Source: Patescibacteria group bacterium (GTDB lineage: Bacteria; Patescibacteriota; Patescibacteriia; 2-01-FULL-39-33). Taken from it: a stretch of DNA of 32,000 bases. A program made the position numbers and the translations under genes. The notes beneath the pieces are model-generated. The model was not told the DNA's origin and made no database searches. It saw only the letters and a list, made by a program, of their open reading frames with translations. The stretch's first letter is position 1. Each line of letters opens with the position of its first letter. Positions 6,640 to 31,535 of this stretch are shown in pieces. The DNA lies in NCBI GenBank assembly GCA_041649575.1, contig JBAZMW010000002.1, positions 150,001 through 182,000 of the forward strand, in the 5' to 3' direction.

Positions 6640-6668
6640 TTGACATAATTTTGAAAGCATAATAAGAT
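6640..6668 (+). promoter_or_regulatory. Sigma70-type promoter for the 6771 ORF
   Basis: TTGACA (6640-6645), 17-nt spacer, TAAGAT (6663-6668), followed by AAT. Confidence 0.55.
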
Positions 6669-6770
6669 AATATATCTTTCTCCAGAGAGAATGATTCATA
6701 GTCCACTTGTGGTGGAAGATGATTGCACAAAAGACAAGGGAACAGGAACCCAAGAAGGAGGCTGTACGTC

Positions 6771-7592
6771 ATGATTAAAAGAACCGTCGTGGGGCGACTT
6801 TTCCGTGATTCTGGCGCATTCGGCCAGTTGACGCCGCCGCCCGGTCTGGAGGGAACCATTGGTGATCCCGATTGGGATTTCTTCTCGAAGCTGCCGCCGC
6901 GTTTTGATTTTCTGGAACTCTGCGATCGGGTCGGCCACGCTTTTGAGATGTCCGAGTCACCCATCTCGCCCTCCGACTGGGAGGACCAGTTCGAAAGTCA
7001 GAAGGAGCGGCTGCTCGCTCTGTCCGGCTGCTCTGATGGCCATGGCATCGTGCTTTTGCCCGGCCTATTGCCAGTGGCTCCCGGTGATTGTATCAGGAAG
7101 AGCCTTTTCAATGTCTACATCCCGGCGGTAGAACGCGGCTACGGGGCGATCTATCCCAAGAGGGCTTTTGAGGATTGGTGTGATGGTCGGGCGGACAGTG
7201 TCGCGGCTTTTCCCGGAGTGGGCCACGAGCATCTAATCCACCTCGCCAGTAAAGGCTTGGTCGCCGTCTTCGTCTACATCGCCCATTGTATGCGGGCGTG
7301 GCCCGTCTCGACCCAGCGCCGACTGCCACGGAAGTTGTTCAAATCGAATTTCTCCTTGGCCGGCGGCTGTGACACGCTTTCCGTCCTGTCTCTGCACCCT
7401 GATATTCTCGCCGCTGGTTTCTGTAGCCCGACGATCGAGCTCAGTGCCTTGCAGACAGATTCGCCGCGCCTCTCGATCTGCGTGGTGCCAGAAGACAAAC
7501 GCCTCAGACTCGACATCTGGGGTAATCCCGACGATTTCGCGCCTGAAGCTTCAGGAGGGCTTTCGTTCTGGAAGGAGCAACCTGTCTTCTAG
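6771..7592 (+). CDS. Hypothetical protein (273 aa), GC-rich island A
   Basis: The track ORF 6723..7592 is trimmed to ATG 6771, which follows the SD GAAGGAGG by 8 nt. It is the longest ORF in a stop-depleted region. No motif recognised. Confidence 0.65.
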   Translation: MIKRTVVGRLFRDSGAFGQLTPPPGLEGTIGDPDWDFFSKLPPRFDFLELCDRVGHAFEMSESPISPSDWEDQFESQKERLLALSGCSDGHGIVLLPGLLPVAPGDCIRKSLFNVYIPAVERGYGAIYPKRAFEDWCDGRADSVAAFPGVGHEHLIHLASKGLVAVFVYIAHCMRAWPVSTQRRLPRKLFKSNFSLAGGCDTLSVLSLHPDILAAGFCSPTIELSALQTDSPRLSICVVPEDKRLRLDIWGNPDDFAPEASGGLSFWKEQPVF

Positions 7593-7681
7593 CTGGCGCG
7601 CCTTAGCCGGCTGCCGGAGTTCTCTAATTGGGGCTAGTGATCATACCAATCACCGGCCTCTGTTTTTTGTTTTAAGCGTAG

Positions 7682-7710
7682 TTGACATTGATAATGAAAA
7701 CCCTTAAGAT
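7682..7710 (+). promoter_or_regulatory. Sigma70-type promoter for the acyltransferase gene
   Basis: TTGACA (7682-7687), 17-nt spacer, TAAGAT (7705-7710), followed by AAT. These are the same hexamers and spacing as at 6640. Confidence 0.55.
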
Positions 7711-7763
7711 AATCTTTCGATCTTTCAAGTTAAACTAGTAAGGCAACCATGGAGGGAGCTGCC

Positions 7764-8501
7764 ATGTTTCTGGTATTATTTTCCATTCTGGTCTACCCAG
7801 TGGCCTTTGTCACCTTCGTCGTTTGCGCCTCAATCTACCTGGCGTTTGTCTTTGTCTTCAAGTCGCTGGGCTGGGAGCTGCAGTACCTGGGGCCGTTGGT
7901 TCGGTTTCTGGCTCGCGTGATTCTCTTGAGTTGTGGCCAATGGCTCAAGGTTGGGGGCAACTGGCCCTCTCCGACTATCGGGCCTTGCATCTTTCTCTTC
8001 AACCACAGCTCTATCCTGGATGCTCTGGTGGCTGGCGCGGTGCTAAAAGGACGGTTCACTGGCGTGGCTGCCCAGGAGTATTTCTTTTGGCCGCTGTGGG
8101 GAACCATTATGCGCTGGCACAATATCATTCCCATCAAGCGCAAGTGCCACGACGAGGCCATAGAGAGCATGCGGCGGGCGGAAGAGGCGATAAAAAACGG
8201 CTGGTCAATAGGCGGCTTTCCCGAGGGCACCAGAAGCAAGACAGGAGAGTTGCAGCCGTTCAAAAAGGGCCTTTTCTATGTGGCCAAGGCCACGGGCGCG
8301 CCGATCGTGGTGATAGCCATCAAGGGGGCGTACCGTGCCAAGAGTCGCGTCGGTTGGTGTGTTCGGCCGGGAGTGATAACGGCCACTATCGGCAAACCCT
8401 GGACCCTGTGGTCTAACGGAAAGCAACGGTATGCGGCCTTGTCGGTGGAAGAGTTAAGGCAACTGGCCGAAGGGCTCATGGCAACCATGCTCGAAAGTTG
8501 A
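7764..8501 (+). CDS. plsC: 1-acyl-sn-glycerol-3-phosphate (lysophospholipid) acyltransferase, PlsC/AGPAT family
   Basis: HX4D motif NHSSILD, FPEGTRS motif, PIVVIAI block and an N-terminal TM segment. The start is moved to ATG 7764, just downstream of the SD GGAGGGAG. Confidence 0.85.
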   Translation: MFLVLFSILVYPVAFVTFVVCASIYLAFVFVFKSLGWELQYLGPLVRFLARVILLSCGQWLKVGGNWPSPTIGPCIFLFNHSSILDALVAGAVLKGRFTGVAAQEYFFWPLWGTIMRWHNIIPIKRKCHDEAIESMRRAEEAIKNGWSIGGFPEGTRSKTGELQPFKKGLFYVAKATGAPIVVIAIKGAYRAKSRVGWCVRPGVITATIGKPWTLWSNGKQRYAALSVEELRQLAEGLMATMLES

Positions 8502-8531
8502 GCGTCAGGCGGTTCCCGCTAGCGTAAGTAT

Positions 8532-8563
8532 CCGGCAACAGCGATGTTTGCCGGTTTTTCTTT
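8532..8563 (+). terminator. Intrinsic terminator ending island A
   Basis: CCGGCAA (8532-8538) / TTGCCGG (8548-8554), then TTTTTCTTT. Confidence 0.65.
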
Positions 8564-8609
8564 ACTTGATAAAATCTCCTAATTTGTTATAATTCAGTCA
8601 AACATTTTT

Positions 8610-10427
8610 ATGACCGCCAAAGAACTCAAACAAAAATATTTAGAATTTTTTGAGCGCCACGGCCACCAGATTATTCCTGGCGCCTCACTGATTCCGGAGA
8701 ACGACCCGACGGTTTTATTTACCACGGCCGGCATGCATCCGCTCGTGCCTTATCTGCTTGGCGAAAAGCATCCCGCCGGCACACGCCTGGCCGATGTCCA
8801 AAAATGCATCAGGACCGGCGACATCGACAGCGTGGGCGACGACTGGCATCTGACTTTTTTTGAAATGCTGGGCAATTGGTCGCTGGGCGACCCCAAGGAT
8901 CCCAAAGGGATCGGGGCAGGTTATTTCAAAAAAGAAGCCATTGAGATGAGTTTTGAATTTTTAACCAAAGAGTTAAATATACCTTTGGAAAAATTGGCGG
9001 TTTCTTGCTTCGCCGGCGATGATGATGCGCCAAAAGACGAAGAATCGGCGAGTGCTTGGCGTTCGCTGGGGATCAGTGACAAACGGATTGCTTTTTTGAG
9101 TAAGGAAGATAATTGGTGGCCGGCCGGTGGCAAAATGCCCGGTCCTCAAGGCCCGGACACGGAGATGTTTTATTGGAACTCGGATGAGTCGGCGCCGGAA
9201 GATTTCGACCCACAGGACAAGCGCTGGGTGGAAATCTGGAATGATGTTTTTATGCAATATAACAAGGCCGCCGACGGCAGCTACCAGCCGCTGGTGCAAC
9301 AAAATGTCGATACCGGCATGGGATTGGAGCGTACCGTTGCTATCTTAAACGGCAAAAAAAGCGTCTACGAAATCGAGCCGCTCTTAACCGTTTGTTCGCA
9401 AGTAACGGCTTTATTCGAGAGCACCCTGGAAGAACTGGAAGCCGAACAAACCAAAGCCGTCAGAATCATTGCCGATCATTTGCGCGCCGCCGTCTTTATT
9501 TTGGCCGAGAGCGTGGCGCCCTCCAACGTTGAACGTGGCTATGTCCTGCGCCGGCTGATTCGGCGCGCTATTCGCTATGGCAAGCAACTGGGCATCAAAG
9601 ACGCTTTCACTGCCAAAGTGGCCGAAGTGGTCATCGCGCAAATGGGCGGATTTTATAAGGAACTAAGAGAACAGCGAGATTTCATTATCGATGAATTAAA
9701 CAACGAAGAAGAAAAGTTTAGCGCTACTTTAGAAAACGGCTTAAAAAAGTTTGAAAAATTAAAAATTGACGAGCAAAAAAAGATCAGCGGCCAAGATGCT
9801 TTTATTCTTTTTTCCACTTATGGTTTCCCTTTGGAGATTACCAAAGACTTGGCCACCGAGCGCGGTTGGCAAGTTGACGAAGAAAATTTTAATCTAGAAT
9901 TTGCCAAGCATCAGGACATTTCCCGAAAAGGCGCCGAGCAAAAATTCAAGGGCGGTTTGGCCGATAATAGCGAAGTGACGGCCAAGATGCATACCGCCAC
10001 GCATTTGATGTTGGCGGCTTTGCGCCGGGTGTTGGGCGATCACGTTTACCAAAAAGGTGCCAACATCACCAGCGAGCGCATTCGCTTTGATTTTTCCCAT
10101 GGCGAAAAAATGACAGCAGAACAAATCAAGCAAGTGGAAGACTTGGTCAATGAACAAATTAATAAAAAGATTCCCGTGGTCTGCGAAGAAATGACGCTAG
10201 AAGAAGCCAAGGAGAGGGGAGCGATGGGAGTTTTTAAAAATAAATACGGCGAGCGGGTTAAGGTTTATACCGTCGGCGATCCCTCGGCAGGATCGGGACA
10301 GGTTTTTTCCAAAGAGATTTGCGGCGGTCCGCATGCCGCCAACACCGGTGATCTGGGCCACTTCAAAATCCAAAAAGAAGAATCCAGCTCCGCCGGAGTC
10401 AGAAGAATTAAGGCGGTTCTGGAGTGA
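8610..10427 (+). CDS. alaS: Alanine--tRNA ligase, short form (605 aa, no C-Ala/DHHA1 domain)
   Basis: The N-terminus FFERHGH...SLIP.NDPT.LFT.AGM is typical of AlaRS. The editing-domain motifs HTATHLM and CGGPH are present. The protein ends shortly after the editing domain. Confidence 0.92.
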   Translation: MTAKELKQKYLEFFERHGHQIIPGASLIPENDPTVLFTTAGMHPLVPYLLGEKHPAGTRLADVQKCIRTGDIDSVGDDWHLTFFEMLGNWSLGDPKDPKGIGAGYFKKEAIEMSFEFLTKELNIPLEKLAVSCFAGDDDAPKDEESASAWRSLGISDKRIAFLSKEDNWWPAGGKMPGPQGPDTEMFYWNSDESAPEDFDPQDKRWVEIWNDVFMQYNKAADGSYQPLVQQNVDTGMGLERTVAILNGKKSVYEIEPLLTVCSQVTALFESTLEELEAEQTKAVRIIADHLRAAVFILAESVAPSNVERGYVLRRLIRRAIRYGKQLGIKDAFTAKVAEVVIAQMGGFYKELREQRDFIIDELNNEEEKFSATLENGLKKFEKLKIDEQKKISGQDAFILFSTYGFPLEITKDLATERGWQVDEENFNLEFAKHQDISRKGAEQKFKGGLADNSEVTAKMHTATHLMLAALRRVLGDHVYQKGANITSERIRFDFSHGEKMTAEQIKQVEDLVNEQINKKIPVVCEEMTLEEAKERGAMGVFKNKYGERVKVYTVGDPSAGSGQVFSKEICGGPHAANTGDLGHFKIQKEESSSAGVRRIKAVLE

Positions 10428-10473
10428 GTTTTTGGTATAATATAGAGTTCTATAAAATAAAACATTTATTTGG

Positions 10474-10498
10474 AAAGGCAGTGTTGCCTTTTTGTTTT
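10474..10498 (+). terminator. Intrinsic terminator after alaS
   Basis: AAAGGCA / TGCCTTT stem with loop GTGT, then a T-rich run. Confidence 0.6.
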
Positions 10499-10505
10499 CA
10501 TTTCT

Positions 10506-10713
10506 GCGAGCGCATGAAAATTTAGCAACAAAACAGGCGGAGTTCGAGCGTAAATTTTAATTTGTTTGAGCAAAAGCCACCAGTAAACTGGTGGCTTTTG
10601 CGAGTTATTAAAATTAGCGAGAACAACCCTGTTTTGTCTAAATTTTCATTTAGCTCGCGCTTTTTTCTTTTGTGTCAGCTTTTCTTTTTACTAAAAAAAG
10701 AAAAGCTGACACA
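10506..10713 (-). repeat. Structured intergenic repeat, copy E1 (inverted relative to E2/E3)
   Basis: Long imperfect palindrome 10506-10660 with arms GCGAGCGCATGAAAATTTAGCAACAAAACAGG / CCCTGTTTTGTCTAAATTTTCATTTAGCTCGCGC. Its core is the perfect hairpin GCAAAAGCCACCAG-TAAA-CTGGTGGCTTTTGC. A second hairpin lies at 10671-10713. The reverse complement of 10641-10713 matches 23139-23207 with about 4 differences. Confidence 0.7.
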
Positions 10714-10738
10714 AAAAAAGAGTATATTTAATAAACTA

Positions 10739-10767
10739 TTGACAGAATTCTAATTATATGCTATTAT
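10739..10767 (+). promoter_or_regulatory. Sigma70-type promoter for island B
   Basis: TTGACA (10739-10744), 17-nt spacer, TATTAT (10762-10767). Confidence 0.55.
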
Positions 10768-10843
10768 AATAAGAAGTACCTTTTACCACTGTGAGCTGGC
10801 CGACTTAGTCGGAAAACTAAGAACGAAGAAGGAGAAACACATC

Positions 10844-11200
10844 ATGAGTCAAAAGACTGGCATACTATTGCTGCTGTTGCGGCCGAAAGACGGAGCGGCC
10901 GTCTTCTTGGACTGGACCCAGAACGCCCTCTTCATGCTGGAGAGCGCGAGTGCCACAGGCGTTTCGCCGTTGGCCGAGAGGGAAGATCTGGCCAAGTGTA
11001 TGAAGGGTTACGAGCTGTGTCCCGCGCTTGGCTACGGCCTATGCGCCAGGTGCCCTATGTCAGTCACCGGCGGTGCTCTCTGTAATTTCTGGGCTTCCCA
11101 GGGATTCGCCCGCGTGCTCGACGCGCGCACAGAAGAGGAGGCGACCTTTGCCGATCTCGATGCCATGCGCGCCGCGCTCACCGCTTCCATTACCGGCTGA
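10844..11200 (+). CDS. Hypothetical protein (118 aa), GC-rich island B, gene 1
   Basis: SD GAAGGAG 8 nt upstream of the ATG. Contains 5 Cys, including CARCP. No family recognised. Confidence 0.65.
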   Translation: MSQKTGILLLLLRPKDGAAVFLDWTQNALFMLESASATGVSPLAEREDLAKCMKGYELCPALGYGLCARCPMSVTGGALCNFWASQGFARVLDARTEEEATFADLDAMRAALTASITG

Positions 11201-11215
11201 AAGGAGAACACGGAC

Positions 11216-11593
11216 ATGCCAACGGTACAAGTGGCCGCGATAAATCTGCCGGCTGGCGCCTTCCTTTTCTTCTATCCGGAACACGCCACCCCCCAGTACC
11301 TTCTGTACAAGAATATCTGGCTGGGACAGACGATGTTCAGGCAGAAGCTAAACGAAGACGAACTTCAGGCTCTCCTCGCCGCCGGTCGAAATGGGTGGGA
11401 GGAAGTGGGCGAGGTGACTCGACGAGAGTTGCAGGCCGCGGATCTCTCTGGACTGGTTCGCAATCTCAAGACCAGGTGCGTCTGGCCCGAGAATGCGACC
11501 GCGTCAATCGCTGTCAGTCCTGACTGCAGCGGACGATGCTCGGAGTGTCGCGGGTGCTATAGCGACATGGAGCCAGTCACAGTAGAGCGATAG
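11216..11593 (+). CDS. Hypothetical Cys-rich protein (125 aa), GC-rich island B, gene 2
   Basis: SD AAGGAG 9 nt upstream of the ATG, which lies 15 nt after the gene 1 stop. C-terminal cluster C-x17-C-x3-C-x2-C-x2-C (RCVW...DCSGRCSECRGC). Confidence 0.65.
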   Translation: MPTVQVAAINLPAGAFLFFYPEHATPQYLLYKNIWLGQTMFRQKLNEDELQALLAAGRNGWEEVGEVTRRELQAADLSGLVRNLKTRCVWPENATASIAVSPDCSGRCSECRGCYSDMEPVTVER

Positions 11594-11613
11594 TCACACT
11601 GTGGTTCGTATCC

Positions 11614-11657
11614 GGGGGTTGTTGGTCGAGAAAGACCGGCAACCCTCTTTTTTTTTA
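11614..11657 (+). terminator. Intrinsic terminator ending island B
   Basis: GGGTTGTTGGTC (11616-11627) / GACCGGCAACCC (11634-11645) with G-U pairs, then TC plus T9. Confidence 0.8.
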
Positions 11658-11684
11658 TTTAAATTTTAGAATCCCATTATTTCC

Positions 11685-11752
11685 TTGACATTTTTCGGTT
11701 CTTGCTTTAAAATACTTAAAGTTGTTGACAAATTAATCAAAATTGCTATAAT
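11685..11752 (+). promoter_or_regulatory. Tandem sigma70-type promoters upstream of infA
   Basis: TTGACA (11685) - 17 nt - TAAAAT (11708), and TTGACA (11725) - 16 nt - TATAAT (11747). Confidence 0.5.
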
Positions 11753-11864
11753 TAGCTTGAGCTTAAAAGTTTCAAAATTTAGCTTAATTAGTGTAAAATT
11801 CTAGGCCGACTAGAAGCTTATAAGTTGCCAAGAATTTTATTTTTATCTAAAATATTTAAGCTGC

Positions 11865-12104
11865 ATGAATCAAAAACAAGGCAATACCCCCGATTCCAAA
11901 GATTTTTTGGAAGTCGATGGAGAAGTACTGGAGCTTTTGCCGGCCGCCAGTTTCCGGGTGAAGCTGGAAAGCGGCCCGGAAATTTTGGCCCACTTGTCAG
12001 GCAAAATGAGGATGTTTAACATCCGCATCCTGCCCGGCGATCGCGTCAAGATCCAGATGACTCCTTACGATTTGACTCGGGGCAGGATAATCTACCGTTA
12101 TTAA
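11865..12104 (+). CDS. infA: Translation initiation factor IF-1
   Basis: S1-like OB fold sequence: [12 protein letters not shown]...[17 protein letters not shown]...IRILPGDRV...[14 protein letters not shown]. Confidence 0.9.
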
Positions 12105-12109
12105 AAATT

Positions 12110-12223
12110 ATGAAAGTCAGATCATCGGTAAAAAAAATCTGCAAAGATTGCAAGCTTGTCCGTCGCAAAAAACGGCTGGTTGTCATTTGCAAAAACCCTA
12201 AACATAAACAAAGACAGGGCTAG
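12110..12223 (+). CDS. rpmJ: 50S ribosomal protein L36
   Basis: Not in the ORF track because it is under 60 aa. Hand translation gives [37 protein letters not shown], a canonical zinc-ribbon L36, in the expected position between infA and rpsM. Confidence 0.9.
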
Positions 12224-12322
12224 TGGCAGATGGCTTGTGGCATATAGCAAATAGTTAAAACTAAAAAACTATAAGCTATATACTATACGCTATAAGCCAT
12301 TTGCTATACGCTAATAAATATT

Positions 12323-12715
12323 ATGGCTTTAAGAATTGCCGGTACAACTCTGCCAAACGACAAGCGCATCGAAGTGGGCTTGACTTATATTTTCGGCATC
12401 GGCCGCAATTTGGCCGTCAAGATTTTGGCCGAAGCCAAAGTCAGTCCCGATATTCGCGTCAAGAACTTGAGCGAAGAGCAAGCCAATAAGCTAAGAGTTA
12501 TTGTCGAAAAGAATTATCGGGTTGAAGGTGAATTAAAAAGAGAAATTTTGGGTAATATCAAAAGATTAAAGGAAATCAAGGCTTATCGCGGCACCCGTCA
12601 TGCCAGAGGCTTGCCGGCTCGCGGCCAACGCACCAAGACCAACAATCGCACCGTGCGGGGCAATGTCAGAAAAACCATGGGTTCGGGCAAGAAACCGTCC
12701 GCTCAGAAGACTTAA
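12323..12715 (+). CDS. rpsM: 30S ribosomal protein S13
   Basis: [27 protein letters not shown]... and [20 protein letters not shown] are canonical S13 sequences. Confidence 0.95.
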
Positions 12716-12727
12716 TTTATTATCAAC

Positions 12728-13198: not shown

Positions 13199-13213
13199 TC
13201 CTATAAATTATTT

Positions 13214-13816: not shown

Positions 13817-13874
13817 AAAGTTATTTTAAAAATATTAAAATATAAATTAATTAGCTTAAGGAGGAATAAAAATT

Positions 13875-15107: not shown

Positions 15108-15114
15108 TTCAAGT

Positions 15115-19018: not shown

Positions 19019-19206
19019 CGAGTGTTTTTAGATAATTTTTTTGAATAATATTAAAACTTTTGTTATTGTGGATAATTTTTGGTATTTTCATTTGACATAC
19101 AATAAAAAAAATTTTATATTTTAAAATTATAATGATTATTATAATTTTATTTTGTTTAAATTTAGCTAAATTATTGGTATTTTAAAAAAATTACTATTGA
19201 CAAATA

Positions 19207-19235
19207 TTTATCTATATGATATAATTATAATTGTA
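19207..19235 (+). promoter_or_regulatory. Sigma70-type promoter for island C
   Basis: TTGACA (19207-19212), 17-nt spacer, TATAAT (19230-19235), inside a ~240-bp very AT-rich tract. Confidence 0.5.
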
Positions 19236-19259
19236 AAAAGATAAATAAGATATTTTTCG

Positions 19260-19790
19260 AATCTCCTTGCTCATGGCGTTACGCCAGTTATCTGGATGTA
19301 TCGCCATTGACAAGGGTCTTTGAAAGGCGTTAGAACTATAATTTAGAGGAGGATGGCGCTTTATACGCTGCCAGTCCTGGCTTCAAGATAACTTCTTGAG
19401 GCGAGGCGGCCGGCTAAGCGCCCTGGGAAATCAGGTCACAAAATATAATTTTGCGGGCCGTACGATTCTCCCGCCAATCACCCTCTAATAATTGTTCTAA
19501 AAAATCAGGCGGGGATCTTGTCCCTGCCGCGATGCGAAGGAAGCCAGTGCCCGTAAATCTGCGCCTGTTTGGCGCAGATCAGGGCAGTCAGAAAAAGTTC
19601 GGCAAGTAGCAAAACAAACATCTTTACCGTGGCCGGCAACTTTTTCTCAAGTTTTATTCGTATCGTGGCAGAGGTAAGCGGCCACTGCCCTCTCCTTGGT
19701 GGCAAGCCGGTTTGGTTTGTATGACCGACCGGCTTGCCTCTCTACTTTAGTCAACAAGATTTGTTGACTGGGGCAGGGAAGTCAACGAGG
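19260..19790 (+). other. GC-rich, hairpin-dense non-coding stretch (long 5' leader or independent ncRNA) upstream of the 62-aa zinc-ribbon ORF
   Basis: There is no credible ORF above 25 aa on the + strand. Perfect or near-perfect hairpins lie at 19508-19528, 19557-19579, 19701-19738 and 19749-19769. A 12-codon uORF (19353-19391) has the SD AGAGGAGG. Confidence 0.4.
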
Positions 19791-19800
19791 AGGGCGAGTC

Positions 19801-19989
19801 ATGATTGTACAATGTTGTAAGTGCCTTCGCGTACGCGAAGGTACACAAGGTAGTGAGTGGAGCCAGGAGCCCGGAGAACGTTTGACTGAAACAGACGTCT
19901 CCCATGGGTACTGCCCCGCTTGCACCGAGAAGGCGTTGGCAGAAGTACGCCAACACCATGGACAGAAGGAGGATACGCGGACCGAATAG
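19801..19989 (+). CDS. Small zinc-ribbon protein (62 aa; CxxC ... SHGxCPxC)
   Basis: SD GAGGAGGG 6 nt upstream of the ATG. Sequence QCCKC...W...SHGYCPAC. A terminator overlaps the stop codon. Confidence 0.6.
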   Translation: MIVQCCKCLRVREGTQGSEWSQEPGERLTETDVSHGYCPACTEKALAEVRQHHGQKEDTRTE

Positions 19990-20007
19990 GACCGCGTTTT
20001 AATTTTC
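19976..20007 (+). terminator. Intrinsic terminator ending island C
   Basis: CGCGGACC / GGACCGCG stem with one internal mismatch, loop GAATA, then TTTTAATTTT. Confidence 0.6.
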
Positions 20008-20646: not shown

Positions 20647-20913
20647 GTTGTCACCTTTCTTTTTTTAGAAAATTATTTTTAATGCCGCTTCTTTTCTAAA
20701 AAGAAGCGGCAGAAGAAAATCGCAGCTATTGTAAAATCCAGACAAAATTAGGTGAGTTTTCGCTAAGGCCATTAACTCCCCGCTCAGGCGCTAGCGCGCT
20801 GAGCGGGTCAAACATAATGGCCTTTGGCCTGCGGCCACCGCTCAAACTCCCAGCCAATTTTGTTCCTGGATTTTCCAGCGCTGCCTTTTTTGATCTGCTT
20901 TTCATAGGCTCGC
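20647..20913 (+). repeat. Structured intergenic repeat, copy E2
   Basis: Starts GTTGTCACCTTTCTTTTTTTAG, 3 nt after a stop codon. Hairpin GCCGCTTCTTTT/AAAAGAAGCGGC (20684-20710). Nested long hairpin with arms 20733-52/20854-74, AAGGCCATTA/TAATGGCCTT and CCCGCTCAG/CTGAGCGGG. Ends TTTTCATAGGCTCGC (20899-20913). Confidence 0.65.
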
Positions 20914-22055: not shown

Positions 22056-23135
22056 ATGAATTATATTAAACAACCAATTGGCTACATTAAAGCAGAGGGT
22101 TCTGGTCCTGATATAGTGGGTTCGGCTATTCGTATTTTAAAAGAAGTCGAAAAAAAGATGGATGTAAGATTTAAACTAATAGAGTATAAAGGCCAAGCGC
22201 CAGCACTGAAATATACCACTAAATCATTTACTGAACTAAAAAATTTTTATAAAAGAATTCGAGAAAGAAAGGGATGTATTATTCGTGGAGGAATTTACGC
22301 TAGACAGGTTTATAGATTGCGACACGATTTTAGGCTGACATATAAACCAATCTTAATCAACCCCATACCGGAATTGTTTGAAAATTCTCCTTTTAAGGCA
22401 GCCTTTGCCAAAAAAATAAACTTATTAATAGCCAGAGAAAACGCGCAAGGGCTATTGGTTTCCAAAGAGATATTAAAGAAAACAAAAACTAACGAGATAT
22501 TTGAGGGAAAATTTTTTTACGACAAAAATCTTTGCCGAAAGTTTATAGAAATGTGCTATCAGGCCGCTAGTAAAAGGAAGAAAAAAATCATGTTTTTAAT
22601 TAAGGGTGATGTTTGGAGTCGTCAGAGTTTTGGTGGTATGTGGTTTAGTTTATGGAAGGAGGTTGGAAAAAAATATCCAGAAGTGGAATTTGATTGGGAA
22701 CACGACGACACTTGGCTTGGCTATTTTATGAATCATCCAGAAAAATATGATATGGTAGTAGCTTTGGGCATTAGTGGCGATTTAATTACCGATCCGATTG
22801 CCACTTTAGCTTATGGCACCAGAGCAATTACTCCTAGCGCTAACATTGCTCCAGACGGTTTTATGACTGTTCAAACCATTCATGGCGCCGGAACCGGTAT
22901 ACCAAAAGGTAAGGCCAATCCCATCGCCATGATTAGAGGCATTGGTCTATTGATGGAATATTTTTTTGAAATGCCAGAGATGAAAAATCTTATCGATCTA
23001 TCTATAAGAAAGGTACTGGCCAGAGGATATAGAACAATAGATATTTATCTTAGTAATAATCCCAAACACAAATTGATCGGCTGTAAAGAAATGACCAGCT
23101 TAATAGTAGAAGAGATGCAAAAACTAACCAGTTAA
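22056..23135 (+). CDS. Divergent isocitrate/isopropylmalate dehydrogenase-superfamily protein
   Basis: ARENAQGL (compare RENTEG), GDLITDPIATLAYGTRAITPSANI (compare GDILSD...G.APSANI) and HGAGTGIPKGKANPIAMIRG (compare HGSAPDIAGKG.ANP.A). Lower GC than its neighbours. Confidence 0.7.
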   Translation: MNYIKQPIGYIKAEGSGPDIVGSAIRILKEVEKKMDVRFKLIEYKGQAPALKYTTKSFTELKNFYKRIRERKGCIIRGGIYARQVYRLRHDFRLTYKPILINPIPELFENSPFKAAFAKKINLLIARENAQGLLVSKEILKKTKTNEIFEGKFFYDKNLCRKFIEMCYQAASKRKKKIMFLIKGDVWSRQSFGGMWFSLWKEVGKKYPEVEFDWEHDDTWLGYFMNHPEKYDMVVALGISGDLITDPIATLAYGTRAITPSANIAPDGFMTVQTIHGAGTGIPKGKANPIAMIRGIGLLMEYFFEMPEMKNLIDLSIRKVLARGYRTIDIYLSNNPKHKLIGCKEMTSLIVEEMQKLTS

Positions 23136-23339: not shown

Positions 23340-23831
23340 ATGAGAAGAATTAATAAAAATACATTGAAATGGATAATAGGAACGATAATCGTACCTATTA
23401 TTATAGCTGTAATAATGGTTAGTAATCAAGTACAGCAAAGCATAACTAATAGTGACAATTCTATTATGGCTGGTATAAATATTGCTAAAACCACTGGTGA
23501 CAATAGTCCAGCCGTGGTTGGTGATAATAATAATTTTGAATACCATGTTAGTACTACAAGCACGCCTCAAAGACATGTTGATCAAAAGGTTATCGATTAT
23601 TTAAATAGAGAAATACCCAAAGATGATCAAATAAAAATATTTATTGGGGCTGTTGCTCTTGATTCGGAAGCGTATATTTTTGCACAAGAAATATTTCATT
23701 ATTTAACTGGTAAGTATAAAAATGTATATGGCATTGAATCTTTGGTGAATGATAATATGTCCCCAGGAATTCATATACACAAAAAGTTACAAGAAAAAAA
23801 TATTTATATTGATATTCAAACTCATGAATAA
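23340..23831 (+). CDS. Hypothetical membrane-anchored protein (163 aa), very AT-rich
   Basis: N-terminal TM segment WIIGTIIVPIIIAVIMV. No recognisable motif and no obvious SD. Confidence 0.55.
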   Translation: MRRINKNTLKWIIGTIIVPIIIAVIMVSNQVQQSITNSDNSIMAGINIAKTTGDNSPAVVGDNNNFEYHVSTTSTPQRHVDQKVIDYLNREIPKDDQIKIFIGAVALDSEAYIFAQEIFHYLTGKYKNVYGIESLVNDNMSPGIHIHKKLQEKNIYIDIQTHE

Positions 23832-26344: not shown

Positions 26345-26450
26345 AAAAAGTTTTTAAAGTTCATAAAGTTAAAAGAAAGATGCTGTCAGGCTTAATAAAG
26401 ACTTTATAAACTTTTTACTTTATAAACCTTACTAACTAATTATCATTCCC

Positions 26451-26753
26451 ATGCTTGAAACATCTAAAGACCTTTTTTGGGTCGCTCTGTCGTTTGCCAT
26501 CTTCTGGGTCGGCATCGCTGCCGGGTTTGGTTGTTTTTATTTGGCGTTGGTCTTAAGAAATTTTTGGCAAATTAGCTCTAGTGTCAAGAAAAAAATCGAA
26601 GCCGTAGAAAAAATTGTCGCCGCTTTCAAGGGCAAGGTGGAGAGTACTGCCAGTTTTGTCCCGCCGCTGGTGGAAGGCGTGACCAAAATCGTCGAAGCCA
26701 TTGGCGAAAGAAAAAAGGCCAAGTCGGCAAAGAGAAAAGAAAAAAAGAAATAG
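26451..26753 (+). CDS. Small membrane protein (100 aa) with Lys-rich tail
   Basis: Two hydrophobic segments at the N-terminus and a C-terminus of KKAKSAKRKEKKK. A terminator follows. Confidence 0.6.
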   Translation: MLETSKDLFWVALSFAIFWVGIAAGFGCFYLALVLRNFWQISSSVKKKIEAVEKIVAAFKGKVESTASFVPPLVEGVTKIVEAIGERKKAKSAKRKEKKK

Positions 26754-26770
26754 CAATATCATTTTTGTTA

Positions 26771-26794
26771 AACGGCCTTAAGCGGCCGTTTTTT
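26771..26794 (+). terminator. Intrinsic terminator
   Basis: AACGGCC / GGCCGTT stem followed by a T-run. Confidence 0.75.
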
Positions 26795-26812
26795 GTGTTT
26801 TTAACATCTTTC

Positions 26813-26995
26813 TGTTATATTAAAGTGGTCGGTTGACGGGAATGACAGCCCCAAAAGGCCAAGAGTCCAGGGAAAGGTACTAGGAGCACTGACCGCTTTG
26901 AAAGCAACCGTCTAGCAAGTAAGCCAGAAGGCCTGGCTGGACGATTCTGTCGACCGATTCCGGGGAGCTCGCGGAGGCAAAAGCGGCTCCCCTTT
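26813..26995 (+). promoter_or_regulatory. lysS 5' leader: extended -10 promoter, ~130-nt multi-helix domain closed by a long-range P1, then a terminator-like hairpin (riboswitch- or T-box-like attenuator candidate)
   Basis: TGTTATATT (26813-26821). P1 is TCGGTTGAC (26829-37) / GTCGACCGA (26949-57). Internal hairpin AGCCAG/CTGGCT (26922-38). GGGGAGC/GCTCCCC hairpin (26962-92) followed by TTTAT. The region is more GC-rich than its flanks. Confidence 0.45.
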
Positions 26996-27056
26996 ATCGA
27001 TCTTGATTATTTAATCCTTTTTTTGTAAAATTAAAACATTAAACCATTCCCAATTT

Positions 27057-28553
27057 ATGCCAGAAGACAAAAATAAGACCGATTTAGACGAACGCAAAAT
27101 GCGCTTGAAGCGCTTGGAAAATATCAAAAAATCGGGCAGCAATCCGTATCCGGAAAAATTTGACAAACAACAAACACTGGCCGACGCCAAAACTCTAAAA
27201 GAGGGGACCGAGGTCAAAACCGCCGGCCGCATTCTTACCATTCGCGACATGGGCAAAATTATTTTTTGCCATTTGCAAGATTTTAGCGGTAAGTTACAAG
27301 TTGTTTTGAAAGAAGATGAGGTTGGCAAAGAAAAATTAAAATGGTTTTTGGATAATTTTGATCTGGGCGATTTTGTCGGCGTGGCCGGCGAGATTTTCAC
27401 CACCAAAAAAGGTGAGATCTCCATTTTGGTTAAAAAATACGATTTTTTGGGCAAAGCGCTGTTGCCTTTGCCGGAGAAATGGCATGGCCTTAAAGACGCG
27501 GAGCTTATCTATCGCCAAAGATACTTGGATTTGGTAGCCAATGAAGAATCGATGGCGCGCTTCAAATTACGTTCAGAAATTGTCAAGGCGCTGCGCGAGT
27601 TTTATTGGGGCAGGGGATTTATCGAGGTAGAAACGCCGATTCTCTGCAATACCGCCTCCGGCGCTATTGCCAAGCCGTTTGTCACTCATTACAACGCTTT
27701 GGATTTGGACGTCTATTTGCGTATTGCTCCGGAAATTTATCTCAAAGAATGCATTATCGGCGGACTGGAAAAGGTTTTTGAAATTGGCCGCTGTTTCAGA
27801 AATGAGGGCATGGATCCGTCGCATCTGCAGGATTTTACCATGGTGGAGCATTACGCGGCTTATTGGAATTATGAGGACAACATGAAGTTCACCGAAGAAT
27901 TGATTTGCCATCTCCTGGATAAATTTTTCGGCGGCCGAAAAATAAAAATCAAGGATCGAAAAGGGGAGCTAAAAGAAGTCGATTTTATGCCGCCTTGGCC
28001 GCGGGTGAGTCTGCGGGAACTGATAAAAAAAGACAGCGGTATCGATATTGACAGAGCCGTCACCGCCGAAGAATTGGCTAAAGAAATAAAAAAGAAAAAA
28101 ATTGAAATCGAAGGCGCCGAAAGGTTGAGCCGCGGCGGCTTGATCGACTCTTTGTACAAGCAGGTTTCTCGGTCCAAGCTGATTCAGCCGACTTTTTTAA
28201 TCCAGCATCCGCTCGATTTGTCGCCACTGGCTCGGCGCAGCGACGACAATCCGGCCGTTGTCGATCGTTTTCAGCTGATTGTAAATACCTGGGAGCTTTG
28301 CAATGCTTATTCAGAATTAGTCGACCCGCTGGATCAGAAAGAAAGATTCGAAAAACAGTCAGTCGCCAAGGACGCTGGCGATAGCGAGGCCCATGGCAAA
28401 GACGATGAATTTGTGGAGGCCCTGGAGCATGGCGCGCCGCCAATTTCCGGCTGGGGTCTGGGCGTTGATCGTTTGGTGGCCTTGCTGACTCAACAGGATA
28501 ATTTGCGGGATGTTGTTTTGTTTCCCCTTATGCGACCCCAAAATAAAGAATAA
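27057..28553 (+). CDS. lysS: Lysine--tRNA ligase, class II
   Basis: OB-fold N-domain, then class II motifs: ETP.L, FEIGRCFRNEG, and GWGLGVDRLVALLT. Confidence 0.93.
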   Translation: MPEDKNKTDLDERKMRLKRLENIKKSGSNPYPEKFDKQQTLADAKTLKEGTEVKTAGRILTIRDMGKIIFCHLQDFSGKLQVVLKEDEVGKEKLKWFLDNFDLGDFVGVAGEIFTTKKGEISILVKKYDFLGKALLPLPEKWHGLKDAELIYRQRYLDLVANEESMARFKLRSEIVKALREFYWGRGFIEVETPILCNTASGAIAKPFVTHYNALDLDVYLRIAPEIYLKECIIGGLEKVFEIGRCFRNEGMDPSHLQDFTMVEHYAAYWNYEDNMKFTEELICHLLDKFFGGRKIKIKDRKGELKEVDFMPPWPRVSLRELIKKDSGIDIDRAVTAEELAKEIKKKKIEIEGAERLSRGGLIDSLYKQVSRSKLIQPTFLIQHPLDLSPLARRSDDNPAVVDRFQLIVNTWELCNAYSELVDPLDQKERFEKQSVAKDAGDSEAHGKDDEFVEALEHGAPPISGWGLGVDRLVALLTQQDNLRDVVLFPLMRPQNKE

Positions 28554-28569
28554 AAAATAATTTAAGTTT

Positions 28570-29136
28570 ATGAAAAGAAAAAAAATTATAGTAGTTATTA
28601 TCATTGTAATCATCATTGTCGTTATTACTTTGTTTTTTATTTTTTTAAAACCACTTTCTTCTTACTTTAAATCGAAAATCCTGGATTATCAAGAGAGCCA
28701 ATGTGAGAAGCAAAACGGATTATGGTCGTGTAATGAGTCGTTTGGTGGCTGCATGGGTGGTTATGCGTGTATTTTGCCTTTTAAAGACGCCAGAAAGCCG
28801 TGTCAGAATCCAGGTCAATGCTCAGGCAAACATTGTATTTTGTCAGATGAGCAGTTGAATCAACTAAAAGTAGTACATATAAACGGATTTTTTTATTCTT
28901 ATTTTAGCAGTCAGAAAGTTCCGGTTTTTCATTCAGAATTGTGCCCGTCTTGTACCTTAGAATTTGATCCATTATATGCTACGAAATATGAAGAGTGGCC
29001 TGAAATTATGGACTTGCCGTCGGGTTTTAGTAATCAAGGGGTTTGTATCTCTTATCCGATGGGAAATTGTGATGGAATTTTGGAAATGGATAATAATAAA
29101 ATTAAAATATTAGCTAATGAATGTCTTTTTTACTAA
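28570..29136 (+). CDS. Membrane-anchored or secreted Cys-rich protein (188 aa, 12 Cys)
   Basis: N-terminal hydrophobic anchor IIVVIIIVIIIVVITLFFIF, followed by 12 cysteines. AT-rich. No family recognised. Confidence 0.6.
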   Translation: MKRKKIIVVIIIVIIIVVITLFFIFLKPLSSYFKSKILDYQESQCEKQNGLWSCNESFGGCMGGYACILPFKDARKPCQNPGQCSGKHCILSDEQLNQLKVVHINGFFYSYFSSQKVPVFHSELCPSCTLEFDPLYATKYEEWPEIMDLPSGFSNQGVCISYPMGNCDGILEMDNNKIKILANECLFY

Positions 29137-29137
29137 T

Positions 29138-29596
29138 ATGAAAAAACTTTTTTTTCTCCTCTTGCCGGCTGCGGTTTTAGTTTTAGCCGGTTGCGGCTCC
29201 CAGCAACCCAACGCCAACACTATCGGCGGAGTTTTGGATTTAAGTAAATCGGCCCAGGAAATACAGAAAGACAGTGCCAGCCAGTCGGCTGTCACCTCCG
29301 AGGATAACGTGGACAACATCTATAAATTCTATAATTTGAACAATCAGGTCAAGGATGAAGCGGCTGCCAAAGACGCCATCAGCCAAGGCCTGGCAGACGG
29401 CAAAAATCAGACGGAATTAAATAAAACCCTGGCCAGAGACAAAGATTTTGGTTCGGCCTATCTTTTGGGCTACACCTTTGGCTGTAAAGCCACCGGCAAA
29501 GCCGAAACGGATTGCCAAAACGAGATGGGGCAGAAGCTCTCGGAAATCATGGTGGAGGATCTGCAAAATCAAATTCCCGGCGCCACGCAGCAATAA
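29138..29596 (+). CDS. Lipoprotein (lipobox LAGC)
   Basis: The track start is 29117. ATG 29138 gives MKKLFFLLLPAAVLVLAGC, a classic signal peptidase II signal. Confidence 0.7.
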   Translation: MKKLFFLLLPAAVLVLAGCGSQQPNANTIGGVLDLSKSAQEIQKDSASQSAVTSEDNVDNIYKFYNLNNQVKDEAAAKDAISQGLADGKNQTELNKTLARDKDFGSAYLLGYTFGCKATGKAETDCQNEMGQKLSEIMVEDLQNQIPGATQQ

Positions 29597-29611
29597 TTTT
29601 ATAATAAAAAT

Positions 29612-30865
29612 ATGTTAGACATTAACAAAATTAGAAACGAACTGGAGGAAGTCAAAAAAGCCCTAGCTAAAAGAATGCCACTAGCCGCTATTGATAGCGC
29701 TTTCAAAAAAATAATTACGCTTGACAATGAGCGGCGTGAACTCTTAAAAAAATCAGAAGAACTAAAATCAGAGAGAAATATTGCCAGTAAAACCAAGCCC
29801 ACTCCGAAAATTATTGCCAAAATGAAAGCGGTGGGCGAGGAGATTCAGGGATTTGATGAAAAGTTAAAAAAAGTGGAATCAAATTTTAACGAAGCTATGG
29901 CCGAGCTGCCCAATATTCCGGCTGCTGATGTCCTGCCGGGTGGCAAAGAAAATAATCGGGTCATCAAGACCTTTGGCGAAAAGAGGGAATTCAATTTTAC
30001 ACCCAAAGATCATTACGATTTAGCTGTAGCTTTAGATATTATTGATTATGAACGCGCCGTCAAAATGTCTGGTTCCGGTTTTTGGATTTACAAAGGTGCC
30101 GGCGCCATTTTGGAATGGGCCATTTTATCGTATTTTATAAAATTCCATCAGGCTAATGGCTATATTTTCATGATCCCGCCCTTTTTGCTCACCGAGCAGT
30201 CAGCTTATACTTCCGGCCACCTGCCTAAATTCAGAGACGATTTATTTTGGACTCAAGACAAGCAGTGTCTCAATGCCACCAGCGAAATGATGTTGGGCAA
30301 TTACCATCGTGACGAAATTATTCCCGAGCAGTCGTTGCCTCTTAAATATTGCGCTTACTCGGCTTGTTTCCGGCGTGAAGCCGGCAGTTACCGCAAAGAA
30401 GAAAGGGGAATGATCCGCGGCCATCAATTTAATAAAATAGAAATGTTCCATTATACTCGGCCAGAGCAATCCTGGGATAGTTTTGCCGAGCTGGTGGCCA
30501 GTGCCGAGAAATTAGTTGAGGGTCTAGGTCTGCATTATCAATCAGTACAATTAGCAGCCGAAGACGCCAGCGCCGCCATGGCCAAAACCATTGATGTAGA
30601 GGCCTGGATTCCTAGTATGGCTAGTTATAAAGAGGTAAGCAGTGTTTCCAATGCGCTTGATTACCAGGCCAGGCGAGGCAATGTGCGTTACAAAAATAAG
30701 GAAACAGGCAAAAATGAATTTGTTCATACTCTAAATGCCTCTGGTTTGGCCACTAGCCGTTTGATTCCGGCAATTTTGGAACAACTCCAGAACGCGGACG
30801 GCTCGGTGGACGTGCCAGAAGTTTTGCAGCCATTCTGCGGTTTTGATAAAATTTTCAAGTGCTAA
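29612..30865 (+). CDS. serS: Serine--tRNA ligase
   Basis: N-terminal coiled coil (MLDINKIRNELEEVKKAL), then class II motifs: SGSGFWIYKG, FRREAGS..., and TLNASGLATSR. Confidence 0.93.
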   Translation: MLDINKIRNELEEVKKALAKRMPLAAIDSAFKKIITLDNERRELLKKSEELKSERNIASKTKPTPKIIAKMKAVGEEIQGFDEKLKKVESNFNEAMAELPNIPAADVLPGGKENNRVIKTFGEKREFNFTPKDHYDLAVALDIIDYERAVKMSGSGFWIYKGAGAILEWAILSYFIKFHQANGYIFMIPPFLLTEQSAYTSGHLPKFRDDLFWTQDKQCLNATSEMMLGNYHRDEIIPEQSLPLKYCAYSACFRREAGSYRKEERGMIRGHQFNKIEMFHYTRPEQSWDSFAELVASAEKLVEGLGLHYQSVQLAAEDASAAMAKTIDVEAWIPSMASYKEVSSVSNALDYQARRGNVRYKNKETGKNEFVHTLNASGLATSRLIPAILEQLQNADGSVDVPEVLQPFCGFDKIFKC

Positions 30866-30869
30866 GTTT

Positions 30870-30919
30870 TAAATGAAAATAAAACGAGCTGGCCGAATCG
30901 TGTTGATTCAGCCAGCTCG
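30870..30919 (-). terminator. Hairpin terminator shared by convergent serS and island D gene (T-run on the minus strand)
   Basis: CGAGCTGGC (30885-93) / GCCAGCTCG (30911-19). The run of A's on the + strand upstream reads as a U-run for the minus-strand transcript. Confidence 0.65.
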
Positions 30920-30938
30920 GTTGTAGCGTGGTGGCTTA

Positions 30939-31436
30939 CTATCTGAGGTGTAGAGCTTTCACCTCCGGTCCCTCACCGAAACACTTGCGTCCCGCCGGTG
31001 ACCCCGCAAGAAGCCGCAGACTGCAGGTTCGCTTGGCTTTCTCGACTTCCTCCATCAGGATTTGCAGTACGTAGAGGAGTCGGTCGACCGAGATCAACCT
31101 GGTCTTCAACTGCACACTTTCGGTCTCCACGTCGATACTGCCGACATGTTGCATCCGCCGCGTGACTTGCAGTTTGGGTCTGCGGCCCTCGACGGCTTTG
31201 ACCGCCTCCCGTGTCAAGACGATGACGTCAGAGCAGTTGAACTCCGATTCCCTCAGTCGTCGGCCGAATTCCCGGATGTGTTTTCCGTCCGTGCCGGATT
31301 CGCCATCCGGGTCAGGCATTTCGAACAGGAACATACGCTCCAAGGCTCTCCGCAGGTCATCTCGTGGGTCGATCCCGACGCTCCTCTCTTCTTCCGACAA
31401 CTCTTGTTCTCCCATTTCTGGCTTACCTTTCAGCAT
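30939..31436 (-). CDS. Hypothetical protein (165 aa), GC-rich island D
   Basis: ATG preceded by the SD GAGGAG (minus strand). It is the longest ORF in a stop-depleted region. The acidic N-terminus gives no recognisable motif. Confidence 0.6.
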   Translation of the reverse strand: MLKGKPEMGEQELSEEERSVGIDPRDDLRRALERMFLFEMPDPDGESGTDGKHIREFGRRLRESEFNCSDVIVLTREAVKAVEGRRPKLQVTRRMQHVGSIDVETESVQLKTRLISVDRLLYVLQILMEEVEKAKRTCSLRLLAGSPAGRKCFGEGPEVKALHLR

Positions 31437-31505
31437 ATGTTTCCTCGCTCCTCAATGTTTTCCACCATAGTCCTAGCAAGCCACCGTTGCTAAGGTACTA
31501 ATTAT

Positions 31506-31535
31506 ATTATACCCCATAAACCCAAAACTTGTCAA
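31506..31535 (-). promoter_or_regulatory. Sigma70-type promoter for island D (minus strand)
   Basis: On the minus strand: TTGACA (31535-31530), 18-nt spacer, TATAAT (31511-31506). It lies back to back with the ftsQ-like gene start. Confidence 0.55.

Follow-up and report, generated by a model that had tools for sequence, protein, structure and literature searches.

Four GC-rich blocks among housekeeping genes of a Patescibacteria genome: probable gene-sized transfers and a candidate structured RNA locus

Horizontal gene transfer (HGT) in the Patescibacteria has been described as involving individually transferred genes as well as islands, exchanged mostly between Patescibacteria and amounting to up to 13% of a genome (mSystems 2025, PMC12455944), and prokaryotic ORFans have a G+C content at third codon positions (GC3) that is on average about 12.5% below that of conserved genes (PMC4706650). 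Here we describe four GC-rich blocks lying between housekeeping genes in a 32,000-nt stretch of the metagenome-assembled genome (MAG) of an uncultured, ultra-small Patescibacteria bacterium (GenBank GCA_041649575.1, contig JBAZMW010000002.1, positions 150,001 to 182,000), referred to below as the window. Block 1 holds U273 and plsC, block 2 holds U118 and U125, block 3 holds an RNA and the gene for the mini-protein U62, and block 4 holds U165 (Table 1). An earlier note on this DNA had read all four as self-contained expression cassettes, arranged like the morons of phage genomes and possibly brought in from a GC-richer organism. We find that the four blocks are two different things with elevated GC in common, and give a probability of roughly 0.65 to the joint reading that blocks 1, 2 and 4 arrived by gene-sized transfer and that block 3 is an ancestral RNA locus. 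The locus offers a junction-by-junction picture of gene gain in streamlined Patescibacteria, with single genes entering spacers and no recognisable mobile-element machinery. The unusual point is that the incoming genes are GC-richer than the host, which is the less common direction of bias for ORFan-type genes.

Composition and coding status of blocks 1, 2 and 4

The window has a mean GC of 0.449, and sliding-window GC rises to peaks of 0.57–0.60 at 6800–7600, 7800–8600, 10800–11600 and 31000–31400, and merely to 0.45–0.53 in the block 3 interval (19200–20000). The six flagged open reading frames (ORFs) have GC of 0.55–0.61 against 0.40–0.50 for the backbone genes, and in five of them GC3 is 0.67–0.72 against a backbone range of 0.43–0.61 centred near 0.52. 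GC1, GC2 and GC3 are all elevated in the genes of blocks 1, 2 and 4. Codon usage was scored as synonymous choice given each protein's own amino-acid sequence, relative to backbone usage; z values for the six ORFs are listed in Table 1, and those of the backbone genes span −2.8 to +3.1. The difference in composition pointed out in the earlier note is therefore borne out for all six ORFs by GC and codon-usage z and for five of them by GC3 as well, so that composition and codon usage of the islets are distinct from those of the backbone. In U62, GC3 is backbone-like (0.54), and its GC excess thus comes from amino-acid make-up.

Long overlapping ORFs in several frames, a sign of stop-codon depletion, accompany blocks 1, 2 and 4. 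GC-rich DNA gives such ORFs in any case, block 3 proved to be RNA, and U165, U118 and U125 are without homologues, all of which would suit a reading of blocks 1, 2 and 4 as non-coding structured RNAs or spurious ORFs. We regard that reading as very improbable. Three-base GC periodicity is strong in the annotated frames and in those frames only (p from 1e-7 to 5e-3), Shine-Dalgarno sequences stand at proper spacing before the ORFs of all three blocks, and the coding regions fold like dinucleotide shuffles (z +1.0 to −1.2; −0.2, with no excess folding, for U118). Protein homologues exist for PlsC and U273, and the fold of U273 is predicted with confidence. Structured RNA as an explanation for all blocks was accordingly kept for block 3 only, since periodicity and a fold z near zero led to its rejection in blocks 1, 2 and 4. 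Blocks 1, 2 and 4 are real protein genes, not RNAs, and their GC excess is a nucleotide-level signature rather than an effect of RNA structure.

The window also contains three AT-rich outliers that the earlier note had not listed (GC 0.29–0.36; Table 1), and the genome takes in genes from GC-richer and AT-richer sources alike. Two further GC-rich (0.59) singleton genes occur between housekeeping genes about 4–9 kb past the right end of the window on the same contig, so the pattern extends along the contig. GC-rich islands number about 3 per 20 kb in this genome versus 0–1 per 20 kb in the closest relatives. The contig is 235 kb long (European Nucleotide Archive ERZ27247363, k141_2894300; NCBI MAG with locus tags WC518_*), and the backbone of the window is typical housekeeping of the candidate phyla radiation (CPR): secDF, a sigma factor, a TrwB-like ATPase, CarS-like and diacylglycerol kinase genes, mnmA, a short alaS of 605 aa, infA, a ribosomal-protein (r-protein)/rpoA cluster, a UvrD/PD-(D/E)XK helicase, pheST, aspS, serS and ftsQ.

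Junction comparison and the case for gene-sized transfer

The relatives compared were alaS-centred loci from GTDB genomes, which keep the order mnmA-alaS-infA-rpsM...rpsI, and pheS-centred metagenome loci (pheS up to 83% identical), which keep helicase...mem126-pheST-aspS-serS-ftsQ-xer. In L007 (alaS 71% identical) the gap between mnmA and alaS is 370 bp and holds neither U273 nor plsC; in L008 (alaS 70% identical) a plsC orthologue is found at mnmA|alaS and U273 is missing. In L017 and L070 about 200 bp separate alaS from infA, without U118 and U125, and serS|ftsQ in L098 consists of 400 bp of empty, AT-rich DNA. At the junctions mnmA|alaS, alaS|infA and serS|ftsQ, whose comparison the earlier note had proposed, U273, U118, U125 and U165 are thus lacking in the relatives examined. 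The absence from orthologous junctions extends to these four genes and in part to plsC; block 3 does not share it.

The same spacers hold different genes elsewhere. At serS|ftsQ unrelated genes are found: L102 has a GC-rich 159-aa ORF, L113 a Cys-rich ORF of 91 aa and L105 the ddl gene. Upstream of alaS, L069 carries a GGDEF gene and L017 a structured, ORF-less block. This varied cargo across lineages indicates that the spacers are recurrent landing sites for lineage-specific genes. The 159-aa ORF of L102 was considered as a counterpart of U165 at the shared junction and rejected, there being no similarity between the two. The block in L017, from a Komeilibacteria genome of 33% GC, lies in the mnmA|alaS spacer at L017 9250–9750 (+), has 50% GC and no ORF above 96 aa, folds with z −4.8 on the plus strand and matches nothing in Rfam; possibly this is a further structured RNA not described before.

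When the six proteins were searched against Pfam, PHROGs, PADLOC and NCBIfam, PlsC alone matched. The earlier note had said that the other five carry no recognisable motif; the orphan status which this implied was overstated for U62, which has syntenic homologues, and for U273, and it stands for U118, U125 and U165. No family, phage or plasmid match was obtained for U118 (Pfam, PHROGs, PADLOC and a plasmid search), none for U125 in the family, viral-collection and plasmid searches run on it, and no family, phage, plasmid or viral match for U165, for which an AlphaFold2 (AF2) model made from the single sequence was poor (predicted local distance difference test, pLDDT, 43). An exhaustive HMMER search with U273, on the other hand, gave full-length homologues in at least 136 clusters at E ≤ 1e-3, the best of them 41% identical. 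A word-indexed search returned only the U273 query itself despite these 136 homologues, and negatives from that search are weak.

The U273 family has no Pfam or NCBIfam coverage, and its named members come only from MAGs of Parcubacteria and Magasanikbacteria (two clusters). The AF2 model of U273 from the family alignment is confident (pLDDT 90.3, predicted template modelling score 0.90) and found no fold match in the PDB at E ≤ 1e-3 (Foldseek). In five genomes, this one and four others examined, the family occupies five different junctions, the other four being dnaN|PBP (penicillin-binding protein), hypothetical|secG, nusA|tsaD and ychF|hypothetical. In those four genomes GC3 of the family member exceeds the mean of its neighbours, with 0.587 versus 0.464 in L089, 0.692 versus 0.569 in L090, 0.564 versus 0.485 in L092 and 0.663 versus 0.339 in L093; a single neighbour with a higher value (0.712) was seen in L090 only. 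The median GARP/FYMINK ratio of the family is 1.18, versus 0.7–0.9 for most of the backbone of the window. U273 belongs to a widespread unnamed family that has a confident predicted fold without a match among solved structures and moves between genomes, and its donors were probably other Patescibacteria.

The identity of PlsC is clear from a match to PF01553 that spans the whole domain with 99.2 bits against a cutoff of 23, and from the NHSSILD (HX4D) and FPEGTR motifs in the translation. NCBI calls a 245-aa form, for which the start would be the ATG at 7764. The syntenic orthologue in L008 is 39% identical and has native GC3 (0.589 versus 0.595), and the closest homologues, 48–49% identical, are non-syntenic and of ordinary GC. 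For plsC, a resident orthologue seems to have been replaced. The U273 and plsC units also have a common −10 region (TAAGATAAT...; 6663–6681 and 7705–7723, 79% identical over 19 nt in a repeat search), and their −10 hexamer TAAGAT is confined to these two units, the other promoters of the window being TATAAT-like. This shared TAAGATAAT region, taken with the identity and GC3 pattern of plsC, suggests a joint arrival of U273 and plsC, with displacement of the resident plsC.

Scans confirmed promoters and terminators where the earlier note had placed them. The hairpin downstream of plsC was missing from the terminator scan, presumably since its loop exceeds the 8-nt limit of the scan, and was read from the sequence. 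That the blocks carry promoters and terminators of their own is correct, but equally good promoters lie upstream of alaS (8566), infA (11685 and 11725), mem126 (20215) and pheS (20941), so that the appearance of self-contained cassettes is the house style of this genome.

These features bear on the proposal that one GC-richer organism recently supplied all four blocks as cargo in a moron-like arrangement. In its favour, the five high-GC3 genes resemble each other (GC 0.57–0.61, GC3 0.67–0.72), each unit has its own promoter and terminator, and the −10 region is common to the U273 and plsC units. It is already refuted for block 3: up to 17 related contigs keep the RNA and U62 at this junction, and the GC3 of U62 resembles that of the backbone. 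Against it, too, plsC has its syntenic orthologue in L008. The promoters are of host type, and no donor sequence was found in libraries of 5.8 billion and 1.8 billion proteins. The surroundings are not those of a phage, the proteins searched gave no phage, viral or plasmid homologue, and the likeness to phage morons is an analogy only. A single donor for all blocks is hence quite improbable. Horizontal cargo as such is upheld for blocks 1, 2 and 4 by composition and junction absence, only by half for plsC in view of the L008 orthologue, and not for block 3.

A different account holds that the genes of blocks 1, 2 and 4 are native, fast-evolving Patescibacteria genes whose GC is kept high either through selection or because gene conversion at recombination-prone junctions is GC-biased. 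The U273 family is richer in GC3 than its neighbours in five of five genomes despite identities of 30–40%, its named members are from Patescibacteria only, the promoters are of native type, no donor is at hand, and the same junctions are variable in many lineages, all of which speaks for this account. However, relatives lack the genes at the syntenic junctions, the different U273 locus in every genome requires movement, and GC3 is ordinary in the syntenic plsC of L008, which means that high GC is not imposed by the junction as such. The same genome has AT-rich outlier genes, and there is no excess RNA structure on which selection could act. We consider a native origin unlikely.

The source of the contig in a MAG and the abrupt changes in composition could also point to assembly chimeras or contaminant fragments. 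The joins ftsQ|U165|serS, mnmA|U273|plsC|alaS and U118|U125|infA were assembled independently from run SRR8542065 and are therefore not assembly artefacts; moreover each block fits exactly within an intergenic spacer and is bounded by promoters and terminators of host type. An artefactual origin is scarcely credible.

Gene-sized transfer thus remains the preferred reading for blocks 1, 2 and 4. Accessory genes would have entered short AT-rich spacers between housekeeping genes, one gene or gene pair each time, most likely by gene-sized horizontal transfer and recombination from GC-richer donors. Ordinary promoters of sigma-70 type would drive the acquired genes and intrinsic terminators would end them, as is the case for the surrounding housekeeping genes. 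No mobility genes were found, in agreement with the earlier note, which had seen no integrase or transposase nearby. A XerC/D-like recombinase gene beside ftsQ is syntenic in relatives and therefore housekeeping. Flanking repeats were considered as insertion scars and rejected, being short and AT-rich or at chance level, as in the case of a 12-nt inverted repeat around U165 (about 0.7 expected).

The RNA locus of block 3 and neighbouring elements

Block 3, which the earlier note had listed with the other GC-rich blocks, is only mildly GC-rich, and the 570-nt stretch preceding U62 is not an ordinary leader. Positions 19232–19800 have no codon periodicity (p = 0.84) and reach a folding energy of −250 kcal/mol, compared with −178 ± 7 in shuffled sequences (z −9.7), and all 200-nt windows in 19201–20000 have fold z of −4.3 to −6.8. 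A profile built from relatives alone matches 19216–19662 of the window with E = 1.3e-56 (nhmmer), and the homologous DNA in the pheS-centred relatives lies after the helicase gene and upstream of mem126-pheS. The predicted RNA comprises a 5′ hairpin domain, a variable middle region and a 3′ domain in which a long closing helix, P1, surrounds a multi-helix junction.

The two domains were modelled separately. Covariance model R2 (5′ hairpin; relatives only) scores 64.4 bits at 19245–19325 (E = 3e-14), and compensatory changes are seen in helices 2 and 3 of alignment A3. Model R1 (3′ domain) scores 35.1 bits in the window (E = 7e-10), where the interior has diverged, and finds 17 sequences in 16 loci (L109 twice), all on the pheS strand, of which seven, including the window, lie outside the training set. 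The models together find the RNA in the window and in 16–17 further loci, always on the pheS strand and upstream of mem126-pheS. Over the 17 sequences of the 3′ domain, 91.7% of cells are paired versus 38–49% in controls with partners slid, and 30 of the 41 pairs show compensatory change. For eight short forms, aligned with MAFFT and folded with RNAalifold, 73 pairs are predicted and 31 have compensatory changes; 93.2% of cells pair versus 39–47% with partners slid, and the covariation score is 0.43 versus about 0.09, with none of 500 shuffles as good. The RNA thus has conserved structure supported by covariation. P1 measures 22–24 bp across members, and lengths range from about 210–240 nt in short forms, which lack the middle region, to more than 500 nt in long forms, which have it (the window, L102, L109 and L110). 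Tandem 3′ domains were seen in L109, at 5135–5302 and 5314–5539 (124 and 77 bits).

Nothing in Rfam 15 overlaps the RNA at E ≤ 1 in the window and four relatives, the families without a match including T-box, 6S, RNase P, SRP, tmRNA, OLE, ROOL, GOLLD and raiA. T-box, SRP, RNase P and 6S were accordingly rejected as identities of the RNA. Judged by covariation and homology, it appears to be a previously undescribed structured RNA motif.

The gene for U62, a zinc-ribbon-like protein that was not called as a gene in the source collection, follows the RNA. In 13 of 17 loci, the window counted, the RNA is followed directly by an ORF of the U62 family, with C5, C6, C8, W20, C38 and P39 invariant; no PDB or NCBIfam family matches U62. 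The start codon is 15–26 nt after P1 in L102, L105 and L115 and 126–524 nt after it in other loci, and in several loci a second CxxC mini-protein comes after the U62 homologue. Of the two hairpins between the RNA and the U62 start in the window, one is terminator-like (GGCAAGCCGG...CCGGCTTGCC, then a weak T-run). Several relatives have an extra conserved hairpin (CAAACCTCAAACAG...CTGTTTGAGGTTTG) between the 3′ domain and the U62-type gene that is not present in the window (Table 1).

Block 3 had been included among the horizontally acquired cargo, and here the proposal fails, as relatives carry the RNA and the small protein at the same junction. By its synteny, block 3 appears to be an ancestral locus of the clade. 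Its modest GC excess is explained by base-paired RNA and a mini-protein rich in Cys, Gly, Pro and Arg. A consensus promoter would drive a multi-domain RNA of about 450–510 nt, composed of 5′ hairpin, variable insert and 3′ domain, that would form the leader of the small zinc-ribbon gene, upstream of a small membrane protein and pheST. The RNA would act in cis on the downstream gene, binding either the mini-protein (autoregulation) or a small ligand.

We know of very few regulatory RNAs in this phylum, and a covariation-supported RNA outside Rfam that is paired with a conserved zinc-ribbon mini-protein would add to them. A farther-reaching proposal is that the RNA at 19245–19674 founds a new large, modular class of regulatory RNA or ribonucleoprotein in one Patescibacteria clade, bound by a ligand or the mini-protein and controlling U62 and perhaps mem126-pheST, and that, separately, U273-type families are kept GC-rich wherever they land. 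This is possible but tentative. If true, the U273 pattern would suggest that these episymbionts either draw on a dedicated pool of GC-richer genes or are subject to their own peculiar form of composition-dependent selection.

Other elements were found in the spacers. Partial DNA copies of the palindromic region at 10514–10719 occur elsewhere in L094 and L095 (after pheS) and in L109, and the region may represent a dispersed palindromic element of small size. The stretch between the mem126 terminator and the pheS promoter has an imperfect hairpin (20715–20890, about 180 nt, fold z −7.1) with no Rfam match, T-box included, and no DNA homologue in the relatives. At 12107–12225, between infA and rpsM, DNA is kept in many relatives and most likely represents an unlisted rpmJ (L36) gene of 37–38 codons, not an RNA element. 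No Rfam family reaches its gathering score anywhere in the 32 kb, the regions before alaS, pheS, aspS, serS and the r-protein cluster included. In this lineage, then, T-box and r-protein leaders of the usual kind are either missing or too diverged. A tRNA scan of the window found none.

Table 1. Features of the four blocks and other elements. Positions refer to the window unless a locus is named; z is codon-usage z unless given as fold z.
Feature	Position	Strand	GC	GC3	z	Remarks
U273, 273 aa, unnamed family	6771–7592	+	0.583	0.672	−5.7	compositionally foreign accessory gene; codon periodicity p = 4e-6
PlsC-type lysophospholipid acyltransferase, 250 aa	7749–8501	+	0.567	0.701	−4.5	PF01553 E = 2e-28
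U118, 118-aa Cys-rich protein	10844–11200	+	0.611	0.723	−2.7	compositionally foreign; periodicity p = 5e-3
U125, 125 aa	11216–11593	+	0.582	0.667	−6.8	C-terminal CSGRCSECRGC motif; co-transcribed with U118
U62, 62-aa zinc-ribbon-like protein	19801–19989	+	0.545	0.540	−4.5	CC.C...W...SHGYCP.C; ancestral, syntenic
U165, 165-aa acidic protein	30939–31436	−	0.572	0.681	−5.2	compositionally foreign; periodicity p = 1e-7
RNA 5′ hairpin domain	19245–19325	+				about 25 bp, GGCG...CGCC core conserved; fold z −6.0
RNA variable middle region	19326–19519	+				fold z −3.8; alignment A10
RNA 3′ domain	19520–19674	+				22-bp closing helix P1 around multi-helix junction; fold z −7.4
Two more hairpins before U62 start	19675–19800	+				fold z −5.3; not conserved in relatives
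CAAACCTCAAACAG...CTGTTTGAGGTTTG hairpin	L100 1029–1205; L112 5667–5846; L110 8486–8718					downstream of RNA; also in L098 and L101
Promoter-like site, U273 unit	6640–6668	+				TTGACA-17-TAAGAT, 10/12 matches
Promoter-like site, plsC unit	7682–7710	+				TTGACA-17-TAAGAT
Promoter-like site, U118-U125 unit	10739–10767	+				TTGACA-17-TATTAT, TG-extended, 11/12
Perfect-consensus promoter, block 3 RNA	19197–19225	+				TTGACA-17-TATAAT, TG-extended, 12/12
Perfect-consensus promoter, U165 unit	31506–31535	−				TTGACA-18-TATAAT, 12/12
Likely terminator 3′ of plsC	~8520–8555	+				hairpin and T-run, CCGGCAAC...GTTTGCCGG TTTTTCTTT
Intrinsic terminator, U118-U125 unit	11614–11647	+				14-bp stem and T9
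Terminator, U165 unit	30885–30919	−				15-bp stem; bidirectional, closes serS too
AT-rich palindromic element, ~136 nt	10514–10649					fold z −7.7; with hairpin 10665–10719, inverted repeats I1, I4, I5
25-bp perfect-stem hairpin	10665–10719					between alaS and block 2; fold z −7.0
Isocitrate/isopropylmalate-dehydrogenase-family gene (IsoDH-like)	22056–23135		0.36	0.32	−5.1	AT-rich
orf163, 163-aa ORF	23340–23831		0.29	0.19	−4.4	AT-rich
orf188, 188-aa ORF	28570–29136		0.33		−2.3	AT-rich
163-aa Thr/Ala-rich protein	L001 1692–2183	−	0.59			past right end of window; signal-peptide-like N-terminus
87-aa CxxC...CxxC protein	L001 6103–6366	−	0.59			past right end of window

The joint reading and described systems

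Several observations weigh against the joint reading of gene-sized transfer for blocks 1, 2 and 4 and an ancestral RNA locus for block 3. A donor was found for no block, and alaS in the relatives of blocks 1 and 2 is 55–71% identical, too distant for the transfers to be dated as recent. Signatures of mobility (integrase, transposase, flanking repeats, tRNA target) were not found, and no insertion mechanism is indicated. U118, U125 and U165 are singletons even at the 90% cluster level. The relatives of U273 are only 30–40% identical and yet are all GC-rich, an excess that simple transfer without amelioration could account for only by assuming repeated import out of a GC-richer pool as yet unsampled; recent transfer does not fully explain its persistence. 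The promoters look native, and either came along from related donors or were recruited locally. Finally, the RNA is kept without the mini-protein in L094, L095, L099 and L109 (three to four relatives).

Among described systems, the genes and islands transferred horizontally in Patescibacteria (PMC12455944) resemble blocks 1, 2 and 4 in that they, too, are lone genes or short islands whose composition stands out in streamlined CPR genomes. The islets described here differ in that they consist of one or two genes, have no mobility genes and no named donor, and are GC-richer than the host. Phage morons are likewise extra genes with their own promoter and terminator, set between conserved genes and unlike their neighbours in composition. 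In contrast to morons, blocks 1, 2 and 4 are on a cellular chromosome and not in a prophage, their neighbours being mnmA, alaS, infA, r-protein genes, serS and ftsQ, housekeeping genes with promoters of the same style; searches with U273, U165 and U125 gave no homologue in PHROGs, INPHARED or IMG/VR. PlsC has the whole-domain match and the HX4D and FPEGTR motifs of the PlsC/LPLAT family (PF01553), whereas it is 39–49% identical to its nearest homologues and the composition of its gene is foreign to the genome.

For block 3 the closest systems are structured leaders. As in T-box leaders, a structured RNA lies upstream of an operon that ends in pheS-pheT; unlike them, it has no match to RF00230 at E ≤ 1, the T-box sequence was not seen in the stretches read, the 5′ hairpin is almost fully paired with no obvious specifier loop, and one or two genes stand between the RNA and pheS. 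From orphan riboswitch candidates and protein-binding mRNA leaders, such as those of r-protein genes, the block 3 RNA differs in being unusually long and modular (from about 210 to more than 500 nt), in having no Rfam 15 match and in persisting in three to four genomes without the mini-protein. It shares with them a conserved multi-helix junction, a long closing P1 and strong covariation, as well as a distance of 15–26 nt from the start codon in some members and a position before a small gene of nucleic-acid-binding (zinc-ribbon) type.

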